Part shown: positions 33,265 through 44,485 of the stretch, one piece after another
How the letters are laid out: each line of letters begins with the position of its first letter
Position numbering within the stretch: the first letter of the stretch is position 1
Assembly: GCF_030013205.1 (NCBI RefSeq)
Contig: NZ_CP122648.1
Reading direction: 5' to 3' (one strand)
DNA length: 64,000 nt
Origin: Escherichia coli
GTDB taxonomy: Bacteria > Pseudomonadota > Gammaproteobacteria > Enterobacterales > Enterobacteriaceae
Program-made: the position numbers and the translations under genes
The notes under the pieces: model-generated
Seen by the model: only the letters and a program-made list of their open reading frames with translations
What the model was told of the DNA's origin: nothing
Databases searched by the model: none

Positions 33265-33317
33265 CTGATATATAAAAAGAAAAAGGCTGACGATTTCTCG
33301 TCAGCCTTTGCTATGTC

Positions 33318-33362
33318 TGGTGGCCCCTGCTGGACTTGAACCAGCGACCAAGCGATTATGAG
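33318..33362 (-). repeat. 45-bp direct repeat of the tRNA ileX 3' end (island att core, yqjH-proximal side)
   Basis: TGGTGGCCCCTGCTGGACTTGAACCAGCGACCAAGCGATTATGAG is identical to 44410..44454 (3' part of ileX); diverges from the tRNA thereafter. Confidence 0.85.
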
Positions 33363-33471
33363 TTGGTTGATAACCCTTTACTTACAGATAATTAGCGATA
33401 CTTTTCAATACCTTAGTATTTTTTAAAACTACTGTATAAATACCTGTATATACCCCAAAATACTTCTTTAC

Positions 33472-35776: not shown

Positions 35777-35974
35777 GTGATACTCATGCATTTAGAAAAG
35801 ATGACCCGCAAAGAAGCTGCCGAGCATTTGGGGGTAAGTGTCCAGACTCTTGCTAACTGGGCGTGTACTGGCAAGGTAAAAATCCCTTTTCATAAGCTGG
35901 GGCGCAAAGTGCTGTATATGCGCACTGATCTCGATGCTTATCTTGCATCCACTCGCAGAACGCAGACGGTGTAA
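35777..35974 (+). CDS. Excisionase/AlpA-type helix-turn-helix DNA-binding protein
   Basis: MTRKEAAEHLGVSVQTLANWACTGKVKIPFHKLGRKVLYMRTDLDAYLAS fits the excisionase-family HTH pattern; three candidate starts (GTG 35777, ATG 35786, ATG 35801). Confidence 0.7.
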   Translation: MILMHLEKMTRKEAAEHLGVSVQTLANWACTGKVKIPFHKLGRKVLYMRTDLDAYLASTRRTQTV

Positions 35975-36115
35975 GGGGGGAGTGATGGCACATAAAACAA
36001 AGGCGACCGCAAAAGGGTCGCCAGTGGGAACAAGGGAAAACAAAAGCATCACCAACAATGCCACATTTGCGGCTGGTGGGCAATGTGATCAGTGTGCTGG
36101 CTTGCTGGTTAGCTG

Positions 36116-36298
36116 TCAGCCTTTGGGTTCTATGCCTTCTTTGCGTAGCTTATCACGACAAGCATTTTTTACCCATGAGCTGAAATTACCAGGCCCTGCA
36201 ACTTCGTTAATTTGTTGCAACAATGTGTCTTCGAAGCGGATGTTTTTCTTTGTGCTGCCGGAGCGATCAAATTTTGGTTTCACATTTTCTTCTTGCAT
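36116..36298 (-). CDS. Putative ribbon-helix-helix (Arc/CopG-like) small regulator
   Basis: 60-aa ORF; segment KKNIRFEDTLLQQINEVAGPGNFSSWVKNACRDKLRKE fits a beta-strand/helix/Gly-turn/helix RHH pattern; start abuts palindrome TGGTACGTACCA; weak RBS. Confidence 0.4.
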   Translation of the reverse strand: MQEENVKPKFDRSGSTKKNIRFEDTLLQQINEVAGPGNFSSWVKNACRDKLRKEGIEPKG

Positions 36299-36343
36299 TG
36301 GTACGTACCATCGTTATAAACTGAAATCAAATGGTACGTACCA
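36299..36343. promoter_or_regulatory. Pair of identical 12-bp perfect palindromes TGGTACGTACCA (candidate operators)
   Basis: Copies at 36299..36310 and 36332..36343, 33 bp centre-to-centre, in the spacer between divergent small genes. Confidence 0.5.
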
Positions 36344-36443
36344 CATTAAAAATACGCAACCATTAAATACAGCGAAGCCCGGCAGTGCGGGAACACTAAC
36401 CGGGCTTCTAACCACCAACGATAGAAAGCGTATCGAGGTAGCT

Positions 36444-36647
36444 ATGAGAAATCATACCACACACCCGCAAGGGCGGGACTCGCACGACCTGAATAAATAC
36501 ATCTGGCGTTTTATCGCCCTGAGCACCGCACAACCGCGCGTGATTCACATCGTGGCCACCAGCGAACAGGAAGCACGCCAGCAATCCCCGGCTGGCTGCG
36601 TGATGGTATTCGCCGCCCGTATTCGTCAGGGGGTGTGCCATGCCTGA
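36444..36647 (+). CDS. Hypothetical small protein (68 aa)
   Basis: ATG at 36444 preceded by GAGGT RBS; MRNHTTHPQGRDSHDLNKYIWRFIALSTAQPRVIHIVATSEQEARQQSPAGCVMVFAARIRQGVCHA; stop overlaps next start. Confidence 0.5.
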   Translation: MRNHTTHPQGRDSHDLNKYIWRFIALSTAQPRVIHIVATSEQEARQQSPAGCVMVFAARIRQGVCHA

Positions 36648-36960
36648 TATGTCAAATTACCAGTACCTGATTAATCCGCATTTTAACTGTGAGCATGATA
36701 TTGCTAAAAAGGTTTATTCCGCTGCGGATGGGGCTACTGACAATATATCAATGGGTATTGCGTCAATTGGTAGCCTGATGTGGCATGCGTCAGAAAATGA
36801 GGACTATGACGAAAAGGCTATGCGCATTGATATGGGTAATATCGGTTTGTTACTGGCAATGCTTGGGCAGTTTGATATTTCGTTACGGTGCACCATTGAA
36901 AATGCCACAGATGCATTAAATGCCATAAAGAAAGCGAATACTGATTCAAATCGGGGATAA
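36640..36960 (+). CDS. Hypothetical protein (106 aa)
   Basis: ORF with start overlapping upstream stop (translational coupling), part of a same-strand chain leading to the primase gene. Confidence 0.5.
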   Translation: MPDMSNYQYLINPHFNCEHDIAKKVYSAADGATDNISMGIASIGSLMWHASENEDYDEKAMRIDMGNIGLLLAMLGQFDISLRCTIENATDALNAIKKANTDSNRG

Positions 36961-36966
36961 ATAATC

Positions 36967-37266
36967 ATGAGAACATATTTATCTGGCTTGACTGCCAGCG
37001 GTTATGCACACCCCAAAATTATCCCCGGCGCTATTTATCTGGATAAGAACGGTAACAGAGTAACGGTAAAAGAACTGATGTTTGACCGTGTGTATTTTAT
37101 TCGTGATGGCTATTCATTTCATAGTTCGCTGAACGTGGAGATCTTTATTAGCAGATTCAGGCGGGAAATCCCGCTTTCCAGAAATAACCATGTGTCATGT
37201 ATGGATGTTGATAAAAAACTACAGGAACTGAAAAACATGATTGCCGCGTGGAGAGAGCAGAAATGA
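36967..37266 (+). CDS. Hypothetical protein (99 aa)
   Basis: ORF immediately after previous gene; stop overlaps primase start. Confidence 0.5.
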   Translation: MRTYLSGLTASGYAHPKIIPGAIYLDKNGNRVTVKELMFDRVYFIRDGYSFHSSLNVEIFISRFRREIPLSRNNHVSCMDVDKKLQELKNMIAAWREQK

Positions 37267-39080
37267 AAAAAGCGCCAAATTTAAAACACCAGCCGCGTGA
37301 CAAAATGACGGAAGTCATCATTTTTGCGGGTAGTGATGCGTGGGCACATGCGAAACAGTGGCAGGAACAGGACGGGCGACTGGCTGGCGATAACGTGCCA
37401 CCTGTCTGGCTTGGAGAGCAACAACTTGCCGAACTGGACAACCTGCAAATCGTACCGGACGGACGCTATCGCGTGCGTCTCTATCAGGCGGGGTTATTGC
37501 GTCCGGGGCTTGTTAATACCATCGGGCAGAAACTGGCAGTGGCAGGTGTCAGGGATGCTGATTATTACCCTGAAGGAATGCACAGCCAGAAACGGGAGAA
37601 CTGGCGCGAATATCTGGAACGTGAACGGGCAGAGCAGGCGGAAAAGAAAAAGGTAGTTGAACTGCCTGTAAAGAAAAAAGAGCGGGTAAAAGACGATAAC
37701 GCTTCATCACTGGCGCTTAACCAGATGGGAGCAAGTCAACGCGGCGAAGTTCTCCTGGCACATTATGGCGGTGAACTGGCGATTCATGCTGACTCTGACA
37801 CTGTTCACCATTACAACGGCGTTGTATGGGAGCCAGTACAGGATAAAGAATTACAGCGAGCTATGGCACAGATTTTCATTGATGCGGAGATCAGCTATTC
37901 GCAGAACGCCATTAAATCGGCGGTCGATACCATGAAGTTAAGTTTGCCTGTAATGGGGAATACAGCCCGTAACCTGATTGGATTCAGTAACGGGGTATTT
38001 GATACCAGAACAGGTAATTTTCGGGAGCATAACAAAAACGACTGGTTGTTAATTGCCAGTGAATTACCTTTCAGCCCACCAGCAGAGGGGGAAACGCTGG
38101 CAACACATGCGCCGAATTTCTGGAAGTGGTTACGCCGTTCGGTGGCTGAGAATGACCGCAAGGCGGATCGCGTACTGGCTGCATTATTCATGGTGCTGGC
38201 GAACCGGTACGACTGGCAGTTATTCATTGAGGTAACAGGTCCAGGGGGAAGTGGTAAAAGCGTGATGGCGGAGATTTGCACCATGCTGGCGGGTAAGGCC
38301 AACACAGTATCGGCAAGCATGAAGGCGCTGGAAGATGCAAGGGAACGCGCGTTAGTGGTTGGCTTTTCGCTGATTATCATGCCGGATATGACCCGCTACG
38401 CTGGTGATGGGGCAGGAATTAAGGCCATTACAGGCGGTGACAAGGTGGCAATTGACCCGAAACACAAAGCCCCCTACTCAACGCGTATTCCGGCAGTAGT
38501 GCTGGCGGTTAACAATAACGCCATGTCATTCAGTGACCGCAGCGGGGGGATCTCACGTCGTCGGGTGATATTCAATTTTTCGGAAGTTGTACCGGAGAAC
38601 GAACGCGATCCAATGCTGGCGGAAAAAATAGAAGGTGAGCTGGCGGTAGTGATTCGCCATCTGCTTACACGGTTTGCTGACCAGGACGAAGCCAGACGCC
38701 TGTTATATGAGCAGCAGAAATCTGAAGAAGCACTGGCGATAAAGCGAGAGGGGGATTCGCTGGTGGACTTCTGCGGCTATCTCATGGCGTCGGTAATGTG
38801 TGATGGCCTGTTAGTGGGTAATGCTGAAATTGTGCCATTCAGCCCACGCAGGTATCTCTATCATGCCTATCTGGCTTATATGAGGGCACATGGGTTTGGT
38901 AAACCTGTAACACTGACGCGCTTCGGTAAAGATATGCCGGGGGCAATGGCGGAATATGGCAGGGAGTATATGAAACGGAAAACGAAGCACGGTTTGCGTT
39001 CAAACGTGACACTGACGGAGGAATCAGAAGACTGGATGCCATCATGTGTATCGGTCACTAATGACGATAGCAAAAATTAA
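37263..39080 (+). CDS. Primase/helicase-type replication protein (P4 alpha-like; D5-type NTPase)
   Basis: ORF 37248..39080; likely ATG at 37263 (MKKAPNLKHQ...); Walker A GPGGSGKS with downstream hydrophobic-D Walker B-like LIIMPD; immediately followed by TGTTCACC iteron array. Confidence 0.8.
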   Translation: MKKAPNLKHQPRDKMTEVIIFAGSDAWAHAKQWQEQDGRLAGDNVPPVWLGEQQLAELDNLQIVPDGRYRVRLYQAGLLRPGLVNTIGQKLAVAGVRDADYYPEGMHSQKRENWREYLERERAEQAEKKKVVELPVKKKERVKDDNASSLALNQMGASQRGEVLLAHYGGELAIHADSDTVHHYNGVVWEPVQDKELQRAMAQIFIDAEISYSQNAIKSAVDTMKLSLPVMGNTARNLIGFSNGVFDTRTGNFREHNKNDWLLIASELPFSPPAEGETLATHAPNFWKWLRRSVAENDRKADRVLAALFMVLANRYDWQLFIEVTGPGGSGKSVMAEICTMLAGKANTVSASMKALEDARERALVVGFSLIIMPDMTRYAGDGAGIKAITGGDKVAIDPKHKAPYSTRIPAVVLAVNNNAMSFSDRSGGISRRRVIFNFSEVVPENERDPMLAEKIEGELAVVIRHLLTRFADQDEARRLLYEQQKSEEALAIKREGDSLVDFCGYLMASVMCDGLLVGNAEIVPFSPRRYLYHAYLAYMRAHGFGKPVTLTRFGKDMPGAMAEYGREYMKRKTKHGLRSNVTLTEESEDWMPSCVSVTNDDSKN

Positions 39081-39093
39081 ACTTATGGAATAA

Positions 39094-39316
39094 CTGTTCA
39101 CCACTGTTCACCCTGTCATAAATATCTTTTGTATCAGTATGTTATAGGGTGAGCAGTTATTTATGAACTGTTCACCAAACTATTCACTGTTCACCTTTTT
39201 GATTGTTTATTGAGCTTCAAGGGTGAACAGTGGTGAACAGTTGGTGAATAGTTTTTGTGAAACTGTTCACCCCTTAACATTATGAATTAAAAGATAAAAT
39301 ATCAAAAGGTGAACAG
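39094..39316. repeat. Iteron array, 9-mer CTGTTCACC in both orientations (candidate satellite replication origin)
   Basis: Forward CTGTTCACC at 39094, 39104, 39168, 39187, 39263; reverse GGTGAACAG at 39222, 39232, 39308; one-mismatch variants at 39148 and 39243; TGTTCACC is the iteron bound by P4 alpha protein at ori/crr. Confidence 0.7.
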
Positions 39317-39367
39317 GTGAAGGGTTAAAACGCAAAAATTTTAATTTACTGCTGTGAGATAAAGCCT

Positions 39368-40455: not shown

Positions 40456-40665
40456 GTGAATTGTATTAACGACCTGAACACAGGCGAGGTAAAAGGTGGT
40501 TCCGTTCATCTGGATGCGCAGACCGTTATGCGCCTTAAGCAGTACAGGATCGACCACATAAATCATCATCCTGACCAACCATTACCAGGTGCGGCGCAGA
40601 TTGTCAGACACGCGGTTAACGCGTGGCTTGATAAGAATGGTTTTGCATCTGGGGGGGAGCAATGA
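40456..40665 (+). CDS. Hypothetical small protein (69 aa), translationally coupled to protease-capsid gene
   Basis: GTG start preceded by AAGAGGAAG RBS; stop overlaps start of the 637-aa ORF. Confidence 0.45.
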   Translation: MNCINDLNTGEVKGGSVHLDAQTVMRLKQYRIDHINHHPDQPLPGAAQIVRHAVNAWLDKNGFASGGEQ

Positions 40666-42575
40666 ATCACTGGTACACCATTAAGGCGCTGGGTGTTCGC
40701 GGAGCGGCAGAAATATCCATCTATGAAGAAATTGGCGGCTTCGGTATTACCGCGAAGCAGTTTGCGGAAGACCTGAAAGCCCTGGGCGATGTCTCACATA
40801 TCGACCTGCGGATCCATTCGCCAGGTGGTGACGTGTTTGAAGGCATCGCCATCTATAACCTGTTACGGAATCATCCGGCAGAAATTACGGTTTATATCGA
40901 TGGTGTTGCGGCTTCAATGGCTTCGGTTGTCGCAATGGCTGGCGATCGTGTTGTGATGCCGGAAAACGCCATGATGATGATACATAAGCCGTGGGGTATC
41001 TCTGGCGGAAATGCTGGTGATATGCGTGATTATGCTGATTTGCTGGATAAGGTGGAAACCGTGTTAGTCCCTGCTTATGCCAGAAAAACGGGCAAATCAG
41101 CACAGGAAATTACCGCCATGCTGGAAGATGAAACCTGGATGGACGGGAAAGAATGCCTTAAGCACGGTTTTGCTGATGAATTGTTGCCATCTGTCACAGC
41201 AATGGCGCGAATTGAATCGAAACGCACAGGAGATTTTTCACACATGCCTGAAACCATTAAAGGAATGATTACCCCGCCACAGGGAGCAGCCAATATTGCT
41301 GGTAATGAACAGAAGCGCATCAACGGAATAAGTGAAGTGTTTAGCCTGTTCGGCAGTCGTTACGACGGGATCAAAATGGCGTGCCTGGAGGATGCATCAT
41401 GTACACCGGAGATGGCCCGTGAAAAGTTGTTGAACGAGCTGGGGCGCGAGTCCACGCCATCCAATAAAAATATCCCGACTCATATTTATGCCGGTAACGG
41501 GAACATAACAGGCGATGCAATTCGTCAGGGGCTTTATTCTCGTCTTGGGTATGAACGCCCAGAGCGGGGAAATCCTTACGCGATGATGAGCCTTTTTGAA
41601 ATGGCCCAGGCATCACTAACTGATCGTGGTATCAGTGTTGGCAGTTTTTTAAATCGCTCGCAGGTCGTTAATGCAGCTTTCACACACAGCAGCAGCGATT
41701 TTTCTCATATTCTGGCTGGTGGTGCTGAAAAATCAGTGCTGAAAGGCTGGCAGGACAGCGGCGAAACGTTCCAGAAATGGACGCGTACCGGATCGCTTTC
41801 AAACTTTCATGAAGCAAAGCGCGTTGGTCTGAATGGTTTTTCAAAGCTGGATAAAGTACCGGAAGGTGCGGAATATAAATACATCACCACCAGCGATAAA
41901 GGTGTACCTATTGCGCTGGCCACATACGGTAATATTTTTTCTGTTACCCGTCAGGCCATTATCAACGATGACCTGACCCAGTTAACTACAATCCCCATGG
42001 CGATGGGGCGTGCGGCCGCCAGAACAGTAGGTAATCTGGTTTATCTTCTGTTAACCAGCAACGGCAAATTTACGGATGGTAAAGCGTTATTCCATGCCGA
42101 TCATAAAAATCTTATTGCGAAGGATATGGACATGGTGGGGCTTGATGAAGCCCGTAAGCTGATGCGCCTCCAGGAGGATGCTAACGGCGACTCACTGAAT
42201 ATTACCCCTGCTTTTGTTCTGGTCCCTGCCGCGCTGGAATCTGCCGCGCGTCGCGCCATTCTGTCATCGTCATCAGTCTTTCCGGTTGGTGATGAGAGCA
42301 CTATCAATCAGAACCCCGGCATCATTAACGTGGTGAAAGATATGGCAGAAGTAATTGTTGAGCCACGTCTTGATAAGGCCAATAGCAAGGAATGGTATGT
42401 AGCCGCAGCTAAGGGGATGGACACAATAGAAGTCGCTTATCTTGATGGTATGGATACGCCATATCTTGAGGAGCAGGTGGGCTTTACTGTTGATGGTGTC
42501 GCCTGGAAAGTGCGCATAGATGCAGGTGTCGCGGCCCTCGATTATCGCGGATTACTGAAATCGAGTGGAGCATGA
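40662..42575 (+). CDS. Prohead protease (ClpP/S49-like) fused to a capsid-like C-terminal domain
   Basis: 637-aa ORF; N-terminal IHSPGGDVFEGIAIYN and GVAASMASVVAMAGD resemble the ClpP/S49 serine-protease motifs (cf. lambda gpC DTPGG); C-terminal ~350 aa has no recognised enzyme motif and is interpreted as major capsid by context and composition. Confidence 0.7.
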   Translation: MNHWYTIKALGVRGAAEISIYEEIGGFGITAKQFAEDLKALGDVSHIDLRIHSPGGDVFEGIAIYNLLRNHPAEITVYIDGVAASMASVVAMAGDRVVMPENAMMMIHKPWGISGGNAGDMRDYADLLDKVETVLVPAYARKTGKSAQEITAMLEDETWMDGKECLKHGFADELLPSVTAMARIESKRTGDFSHMPETIKGMITPPQGAANIAGNEQKRINGISEVFSLFGSRYDGIKMACLEDASCTPEMAREKLLNELGRESTPSNKNIPTHIYAGNGNITGDAIRQGLYSRLGYERPERGNPYAMMSLFEMAQASLTDRGISVGSFLNRSQVVNAAFTHSSSDFSHILAGGAEKSVLKGWQDSGETFQKWTRTGSLSNFHEAKRVGLNGFSKLDKVPEGAEYKYITTSDKGVPIALATYGNIFSVTRQAIINDDLTQLTTIPMAMGRAAARTVGNLVYLLLTSNGKFTDGKALFHADHKNLIAKDMDMVGLDEARKLMRLQEDANGDSLNITPAFVLVPAALESAARRAILSSSSVFPVGDESTINQNPGIINVVKDMAEVIVEPRLDKANSKEWYVAAAKGMDTIEVAYLDGMDTPYLEEQVGFTVDGVAWKVRIDAGVAALDYRGLLKSSGA

Positions 42576-44367: not shown

Positions 44368-44409
44368 TAAAGCAAGATAGTTTGGATACATCTGTAATTC
44401 ATTGAAATC

Positions 44410-44485
44410 TGGTGGCCCCTGCTGGACTTGAACCAGCGACCAAGCGATTATGAGTCGCCTGCTCTAACCACTGAGCTAAGGGGCC
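44410..44485 (-). tRNA. ileX: tRNA-Ile (anticodon CAU, lysidine-modified isoleucine tRNA)
   Basis: Reverse complement reads GGCCCCTTAGCTCAGTGGTTAGAGCAGGCGACTCATAATCGCTTGGTCGCTGGTTCAAGTCCAGCAGGGGCCACCA: 76 nt, CAT anticodon in loop, encoded CCA end; canonical position next to mug. Confidence 0.9.

Follow-up and report, generated by a model that had tools for sequence, protein, structure and literature searches.

Within a 64,000-nucleotide stretch of Escherichia coli DNA (RefSeq assembly GCF_030013205.1, contig NZ_CP122648.1), referred to here as the window, we analysed a compact regulatory region in which a small minus-strand gene and a plus-strand operon diverge from two identical 12-bp palindromes, and which we interpret as the probable switch of a phage-inducible chromosomal island (PICI). 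The exact sequence TGGTACGTACCA was found exactly twice in the window, at 36299-36310 (operator O1) and 36332-36343 (operator O2), with a start-to-start distance of 33 bp, or 3.1 helical turns. To the left lies a 60-aa gene on the minus strand (36116-36298), the ATG of which directly adjoins O1. To the right, the plus-strand operon comprises an Icd-like gene (host cell division inhibitor Icd-like, 67 aa, 36444-36647), a 106-aa open reading frame (ORF; 36640-36960), a 99-aa DUF4222 gene (36967-37266) and a D5/P4-type primase-helicase gene (605 aa, 37263-39080), with stops and starts overlapping along the chain. A first-pass annotation of the same letters had described the palindromes as three helical turns apart, the 60-aa ORF as having a weak ribosome-binding site and a start touching one palindrome, and the plus-strand chain as ORFs of 68, 106 and 99 aa leading into a primase; all elements were recovered at the positions given, and only the length of the first ORF changed, to 67 aa plus its stop codon.

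A single palindrome of this length is unremarkable, the window holding 18 perfect 12-bp palindromes where ~16-19 are expected. TGGTACGTACCA is the only palindromic sequence with a second copy in the window, and an identical second copy at a distance of ≤100 bp has an expectation of ~2e-4 and was seen in 1 of 300 Markov simulations.

The 60-aa product belongs to the YlcI/YnfO family (DUF3950), scoring 33.0 bits against PF13132 (cut-off 25) over the whole protein and 31.1 bits against NF041551 (cut-off 30); the Prokaryotic Genome Annotation Pipeline (PGAP) gives the same family name to the identical protein WP_001154805.1. The gene is hereafter called ylcI. A word-indexed protein search returned only 6 close relatives, and an exhaustive search was needed to reach 31. 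Orthologues at 64-75% identity retain a length of 59-60 aa, with a ratio of nonsynonymous to synonymous substitution (dN/dS) of ~0.05-0.11 (dN 0.17-0.26, dS saturated). As dN is low while dS is saturated, purifying selection acts on the ORF, which is thus a real gene, and its conservation argues that it is translated. Our literature search found no functional study of YlcI, YnfO or DUF3950.

The first-pass annotation had tentatively called this protein ribbon-helix-helix (RHH)-like and proposed structure prediction of a dimer as a check. The predicted fold has a strand at residues ~15-23 and helices at 24-34 and 39-53, and the AlphaFold monomer model has an extended segment followed by two helices. 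The dimer, modelled as a tandem fusion with a paired alignment of 29 homologues, showed strand-helix-helix twice (core predicted local distance difference test score 82-92), with the strands of the two halves paired as an antiparallel ribbon, and its matches included many RHH repressors and antitoxins. No RHH family in Pfam matched the protein at E ≤ 0.01, so that the RHH call stands as a predicted fold and not as sequence or profile similarity to known RHH proteins. An RHH antitoxin of a toxin-antitoxin pair was considered and ruled out, since the gene is monocistronic, is followed by its own terminator-like hairpin (36002-36022, with a T-run on the minus strand only and none after the hairpin on the plus strand) and has no partner ORF.

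The association of ylcI with twin sites was recovered from DNA alone. We scanned one genome per species from 100,044 species with the pattern TGGTANNTACC-N22-TGGTANNTACC, using no protein information, and obtained 36 loci, of which 12 carried a YlcI homologue with its start codon 0-1 nt from the site. Loci with YlcI came from Photorhabdus, Pantoea, six Xenorhabdus species, Rosenbergiella, Serratia, Erwinia, an Enterobacteriaceae metagenome-assembled genome and Alteromonas; a 13th locus, from Proteus, is cut at the locus end and has the adjacent RNA described below. The other 23 loci lie in unrelated phyla, have no YlcI homologue and were treated as chance or unrelated matches. Among the loci matching the twin-site pattern were four Jiangella species (L010, L012, L038 and L039) with no YlcI homologue nearby; so many matches in a single genus exceed the chance expectation, and these genomes may share some unrelated conserved element.

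Overall, the arrangement of twin sites and ylcI is kept across ten genera. Together, the scan loci and the loci reached via protein homologues made up 16 distinct homologous regulatory regions, in which the spacing was 33 bp in 15 and the 21 bp between the sites diverged, while the outer half-sites TGGT/ACCA were invariant (O1 as TGGT-NNNN-ACC). The inner operator bases covary with beta-strand residues 17-19 of the 60-aa group: proteins with the strand S-T-K-K-N-I-R-F, or R-K-Q, have TGGT-ACGT-ACC; those with S-T-M-K-H have TGGT-AACT/AGTT-ACCA; S-T-S-K-I is paired with TGGT-TTAT-ACCA; and S-T-R-Q-T with TGGT-(A/T)CGA-ACCA. A second allele group within the family, with proteins of 59 or 101 aa that begin MATG..., is found in other E. 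coli islands, where 3-5 copies of a different motif lie between the divergent genes. Here the ribbon and the motif change jointly, with the remaining protein 85-93% identical: SLTARIP occurs with TGTAAGAC, LTTVRVP with TGTGTTTC, MTTVRIP with TGTATGTC, QLNARFP with GTGCGATTC and ALKARVP with GTGGGCCAC. In all, beta-ribbon residues covary with operator bases across ~10 allele classes, as expected if the ribbon reads the DNA and hard to reconcile with another binder. If the ribbon does read the operator, the change from KKN to MKH (K17M/N19H) is predicted to shift preference from TGGTACGTACCA to TGGTAACTACCA.

The conserved sequences around the sites resemble two crossing promoters, proposed here from conservation only. 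The putative rightward promoter PR (plus strand, 36293-36320) would consist of a TTGCAT -35 hexamer (36293-36298), a 16-nt spacer that is mostly O1 and a TATAAA -10 hexamer (36315-36320). TTGCAT stands immediately left of O1 in identical form in all 16 homologous regions, and the -10 position reads TATAAT in eight and TATAAA in two of the 16. The overlap of TTGCAT with the ATG-CAA codons of ylcI may explain why many homologues start with Met-Gln. The candidate leftward promoter PL of ylcI (minus strand, 36331-36359) would have a TTGCGT -35 hexamer (36359-36354), a 17-nt spacer and a TACCAT -10 hexamer (36336-36331). This -10 hexamer is half of O2 plus one base and is present in 15 of 16 regions, and TTGC(G/T)T stands 10 nt beyond O2 in 12, further off in three and is absent in Alteromonas. 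O1 would accordingly adjoin the ylcI start codon and fill the spacer of PR, and O2 would lie over the -10 and spacer of PL, at ~+5 to +16 of the rightward transcript. Since the predicted starts of PR, near 36327, and of PL, near 36324, are a few bases apart, the two binding sites for RNA polymerase would largely coincide. The first-pass annotation had seen in this layout a repressor and operator controlling replication genes, a proposal which the dN/dS values, invariant half-sites, ribbon covariation and conserved promoter hexamers support computationally.

A further element, opposite the leader of the Icd-like gene, is a predicted structured, SymR-like cis-antisense RNA of ~80 nt (minus strand, 36362-36443), fully complementary to the leader and its Shine-Dalgarno sequence. 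Its layout comprises a 5' helix with an inner hairpin, a UUAG linker, a 3' hairpin (36374-36408) and a U-rich tail as terminator, with a minimum free energy of -38.1 kcal/mol (z -4.7). An alignment of 13 loci supported this two-domain fold with 27 pairs, 94.6% of cells paired and 12 pairs with compensatory changes; slid controls reached only 34-58% pairing. The Rfam family SymR (RF01809) matched the minus strand at full length (36371-36443, 34.8 bits, E 0.0011), and full-length matches were also found on the equivalent (ylcI) strand of two divergent loci (41 bits in L007, 34.8 bits in L003). The RNA would start at ~36443 from an extended -10 element, TGgTATGAT (minus strand, 36451-36459), within the first codons of the Icd-like gene, and a -10-like box (TATGAT, TATATT, TAATAT, TACTAT and others), often with TGn, occupies the same place in 13 loci despite their differing ORFs.

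The relationship with SymR was also recovered in the opposite direction. Built from the island sequences, a covariance model scored 97 bits on the window RNA and detected the genuine symR, which lies opposite the 5' end of symE (L050, 1507-1593), with 33.9 bits (E 8e-6 in a 112-kb search, 2e-7 in the 3-kb symER locus alone). The symE leader and one island leader moreover share 10-12-nt strings (GTGCGCCAACAC, CTAATCACAA). From this mutual detection and the shared strings, the symE-SymR module may be related to PICI immunity modules. In both systems a two-hairpin RNA is cis-antisense to the 5' untranslated region and start of a gene that contains its promoter; the partner of SymR is SymE, an AbrB-fold toxin, whereas the island RNAs face Icd-like or other small ORFs. 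Our literature search found no functional study linking SymR with islands, and none on Icd-like proteins.

The surrounding element is, by its anatomy, a Gram-negative PICI of 11.1 kb. It is bounded by 48-bp perfect direct repeats (33316-33363 and 44408-44455), the attachment (att) sites, which duplicate the 3' part of a tRNA gene with a CAT anticodon (44410-44485), and the integrase lies at the island end far from the intact tRNA. The gene order runs from the integrase through a 228-aa hypothetical protein, an AlpA-like helix-turn-helix (HTH) protein, the 60-aa gene on the opposite strand and the Icd-like gene to the 106-aa ORF, DUF4222, the primase-helicase, a small ORF, a single-stranded DNA-binding protein, a ClpP-protease/major-capsid fusion and DUF1441. 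Published accounts divide Gram-negative PICIs into an integration zone, a regulatory zone that varies, a replication zone whose origin lies downstream and a late zone that often holds a capsid gene (PMC10111431; also PMC6092414). The features that mark a Gram-negative PICI, namely a size of 10-20 kb, att sites, an end with int and alpA, a regulatory zone, a primase-origin zone and a late zone, are all present, and the gene order is the same as in EcCICFT073. Just after the primase gene, at least 11 ACTGTTCACC iterons in both orientations (39090-39330) flank AT-rich DNA and are most likely the island's replication origin. The palindromes themselves were considered as origin iterons and ruled out given this separate array; a weak Rfam match to 'MIR1508' at the same position (39090-39330) is an artefact of the ACTGTTCACC repeats.

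Related modules are widespread in E. coli. Of 5426 complete E. coli genomes, 1532 (about a quarter) have a match to the leader and Icd-like segment and 66 carry the full cassette of the window allele; the window is 100% identical to E. coli strain WCHEC035148 over the switch region. A small divergent gene stands at the ylcI position in all nine inspected E. coli islands with this leader. Eight of the nine genes are annotated YlcI/YnfO, including those of Nissle, O157:H7, O111 and EcCICFT073, and the product of the ninth, 59 aa long, ends in the same GIEPKG tail. In EcCICFT073, the prototype Gram-negative PICI (NC_004431.1, 1380473-1381052; locus L058, 9474-10053), we found a divergent YlcI/YnfO gene, GTGGGCCAC repeats and the antisense RNA, on which the island RNA model scored 66.8 bits. 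The YlcI/YnfO and Icd-like genes of that island bear the tags C_RS30120 and C_RS30125, out of series among C_RS069xx, which suggests that both were annotated later. A 2018 study called the existence of a repressor in Gram-negative PICIs (EcCICFT073) 'unclear' (PMC6092414). The 'repressor' of the EcCIMP1 paper was examined as a counterpart and discarded, being an unrelated PerC/ANR-like protein, and a literature search returned nothing that joined 'ribbon-helix-helix' with PICI, satellite or primase. The structured antisense RNA, the PICI identity and the EcCICFT073 module are three points absent from the first-pass annotation.

From the sequence anatomy, fold prediction, conservation, covariation, and RNA structure and strand, we infer DNA binding, the identity of the promoters, the direction of regulation, the effect of the RNA and the route of induction, and consider it probable that the region is the immunity/replication switch of a Gram-negative PICI, with a YlcI-type RHH repressor acting on twin operators. 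YlcI would act as an RHH dimer reading TGGT-NNNN-ACCA via beta-ribbon residues ~17-21 (K-K-N-I-R), at two identical operators 33 bp apart inside two crossing promoters. O1 would fill the spacer of PR (TTGCAT-16-TATAAA), which would drive the Icd-like gene, the two small ORFs and the primase-helicase gene, and O2 would cover both the beginning of the rightward transcript and the -10 of PL (TTGCGT-17-TACCAT). We propose that occupancy of O1 and O2 would therefore keep the replication operon off and the repressor autoregulated. The antisense RNA, presumably constitutive, would start beside the Icd-like start codon and terminate shortly ahead of the leftward -35; its probable effect, like that of SymR on symE, is to block translation of the first gene, so that leaky leader transcripts would remain untranslated, and polarity may lower expression further downstream. 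Derepression might, speculatively, follow from read-through of helper-induced alpA transcription, antisense across ylcI, or alternatively from an anti-repressor encoded by the helper, as with Stl. A broader proposal, which we advance tentatively as possible, is that YlcI/YnfO RHH proteins are unrecognized master repressors of PICIs including EcCICFT073, that their alleles constitute immunity groups which helpers override, and that symE-SymR is a relative of the module, possibly a domesticated one.

Several observations weigh against the repressor switch. The RHH assignment was drawn from modelling two copies fused artificially in tandem; with the monomer model, no Foldseek match reached significance, and searches of the PDB with the single sequence and with a profile found no solved RHH protein. 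As sequence methods give no tie to a solved RHH protein, the fold assignment is structural and predicted. The start of ylcI has no recognizable Shine-Dalgarno sequence. A consensus promoter scanner run on the window called neither switch promoter, and PR was missed because its -10 hexamer ends in A. A small number of evolutionary events might account for the KKN/MKH covariation, and the SymR matches (34.8-41 bits) are below the Rfam gathering score of 61. Finally, induction of EcCICFT073 has been explained by the activator AlpA, with no need for a repressor (PMC6092414).

That last point bears on the strongest of the alternatives, which we regard as unlikely, in which YlcI binds the palindromes without repressing the replication operon. 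It might be confined to autoregulation, act as an activator or architectural protein at PR, or have another job, for example helper interference, and the operon would be silenced mainly through the antisense RNA and the lack of AlpA. Over-expressed AlpA alone induces EcCICFT073 replication (PMC6092414), and the antisense RNA is far commoner than this ylcI allele, judging by the 1532 genomes with some match against the 66 with the full cassette. YlcI/YnfO paralogues in lambda and its relatives, moreover, adjoin cos and have no twin TGGT..ACCA sites upstream, so the family does not always act as a switch repressor. The placement of the sites points the other way: O1 lies between the conserved -35 and -10 hexamers of the one rightward promoter that is plausible, where bound proteins typically repress by steric hindrance instead of activating, and every allele class has its own motif at the equivalent -35-proximal position.

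A reading in which the hairpins function in the plus-strand transcript, either as an attenuator in the leader or as a processed sense immunity RNA of the P4 CI or P1 C4 type, with no separate antisense RNA, is improbable. C4/isrK-type sense immunity RNAs have been reported in some Gram-negative PICIs (PMC10111431), and the plus strand does fold better than shuffled sequences (z -3.7). The pairing pattern, however, is that of a minus-strand RNA: of 332 cells, 314 are standard pairs on the minus strand, with 48 G·U and 1 A·C, against 267 on the plus strand, where 48 cells become A·C mismatches and 1 is G·U. The U-tract after the 3' hairpin exists on the minus strand only, the conserved -10 box of that strand lies at the right distance, and SymR matches the minus strand in three loci, whereas Rfam C4 and isrK had no match at E ≤ 1 in the window (33-41 kb) or nine related loci. 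It was on this G·U/A·C asymmetry and the Rfam results that the plus-strand attenuator and the C4/CI-type RNA were excluded.

More improbable still, the palindromes might be read by another factor (an AlpA-like, integrase, host or helper protein) and lie beside ylcI incidentally. An AlpA-like HTH protein is indeed encoded 320 bp away, but the site abuts the ylcI ATG in all 12 genomes that were found by DNA pattern alone, and operator bases track the YlcI beta-strand in ~10 classes while alpA type, first rightward ORF and primase type vary independently. Chance palindromes beside a spurious ORF, for which the ordinary number of single 12-bp palindromes (18 in the window) and the weak ribosome-binding site might speak, have a negligible probability, already refuted by the comparative data: the identical pair has an expectation of ~2e-4, conservation extends over ten genera and dN/dS is ~0.1.

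Read as a repressor switch, the region appears to be a real, conserved repressor-operator system of an ordinary kind, with counterparts among well-known regulatory circuits. The immI region of phage P22 encodes the RHH repressors Mnt and Arc, with overlapping Pant/Pmnt promoters and the sar antisense RNA. The predicted island switch shares with it a small RHH repressor, symmetric operators within overlapping opposed promoters and, as a second layer of control, a short cis-antisense RNA on the ribosome-binding region of the downstream gene. P22 immI, however, has two repressors with different operators where the island has one repressor with two identical ones, and it controls an antirepressor instead of a replication module extending from the Icd-like gene to the primase; no sequence relationship was detectable between the two, the island RNA is SymR-like and unrelated to sar, and the switch resides in a satellite island where that of P22 belongs to a phage. 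In Tn10 tetR-tetA, two palindromic operators lie in overlapping divergent promoters, and one small repressor serves its own gene and the divergent operon, as YlcI would. TetR differs in being a 23-kDa HTH protein with a ligand, the island repressor being a 60-aa predicted RHH protein with no known inducer. P1 immI combines a C1-controlled promoter with C4 RNA, icd and ant, and P4 immunity operates through the CI RNA. These systems resemble the island in that a repressor-controlled promoter is followed by an immunity RNA that targets the ribosome-binding region of a first gene of icd type and has polar effects downstream, but P1 C4 and P4 CI are processed from the sense transcript whereas the island RNA lies on the opposite strand. 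Stl and Rpr are the master repressors of Staphylococcus aureus pathogenicity islands and other Gram-positive PICIs and are inactivated by helper-phage proteins (PMC6092414). They too are transcribed divergently from the replication module, at the same island position and in the same orientation, and differ in being larger and unrelated to YlcI in sequence. SymR, a 77-nt RNA with its promoter embedded in symE, represses symE translation (PMC1891008). It has the same two-domain fold and promoter-in-gene layout as the island RNA (PMC1891008), differing in its SymE partner, where islands have Icd-like or other small ORFs, and in an upstream operator that is bound by LexA in symE and would be bound by YlcI in the island.

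If correct, the YlcI switch would provide a candidate for the missing repressor of Gram-negative PICIs, with defined operators on which repression is directly testable. It would also give a fold and a likely role to DUF3950, a domain family that takes the name YlcI/YnfO from y-genes of E. coli K-12, offer a natural series of ribbon and operator specificities for studying or engineering RHH recognition, and tie the well-studied SymR RNA to mobile-element immunity modules.

Among the neighbouring genes, the Icd-like family was assigned through NF033153 (71.2 bits, cut-off 25) and PGAP, and its annotations conflict, phrog_6196 and phrog_1743 in PHROGs being labelled 'transcriptional repressor' as opposed to cell-division inhibitor in NCBIfam. 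The AlpA-like gene (plus strand, 35777-35974; HTH_17, TIGR01764, excisionase family) is convergent with ylcI, and AlpA is a known activator of Gram-negative PICIs (PMC6092414). In the late zone, a 637-aa protein (40662-42575) fuses a ClpP-like prohead protease to a major capsid protein and is followed by the DUF1441 protein (42.8-43.3 kb), and the island, while carrying this capsid fusion, is without portal and terminase-large genes.

YlcI homologues also occur in other settings. Lambda, which is known to act as a helper for E. coli PICIs, 434, HK630, the lambda-like phage ev207 (L052, 228-422) and many other lambdoids encode a frequently unannotated 64-aa YlcI/YnfO homologue between bor and cos, with the sequence MSTKNRTRR...NIRFPNQMIEQINIALEQKGSGNFSAWVIEACRRRL. 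A homologue with the beta-strand SSVKNIRM (L048, 1501-1680) has a single CGGTACATACCG site ~33 bp upstream and adjoins a resistance-nodulation-division (RND) efflux operon outside any island, and may be a domesticated copy. The top match of the exhaustive search was P0007 (1338 aa), in which 11 separate stretches resemble DUF3950. The C-terminal tail (E/R)GIEPKG (window 36116-36136; L056, 1638-1817) is common to alleles with different operators, namely the window allele, the BH100 allele, P0016 and P0027, and could be a docking peptide for a partner.

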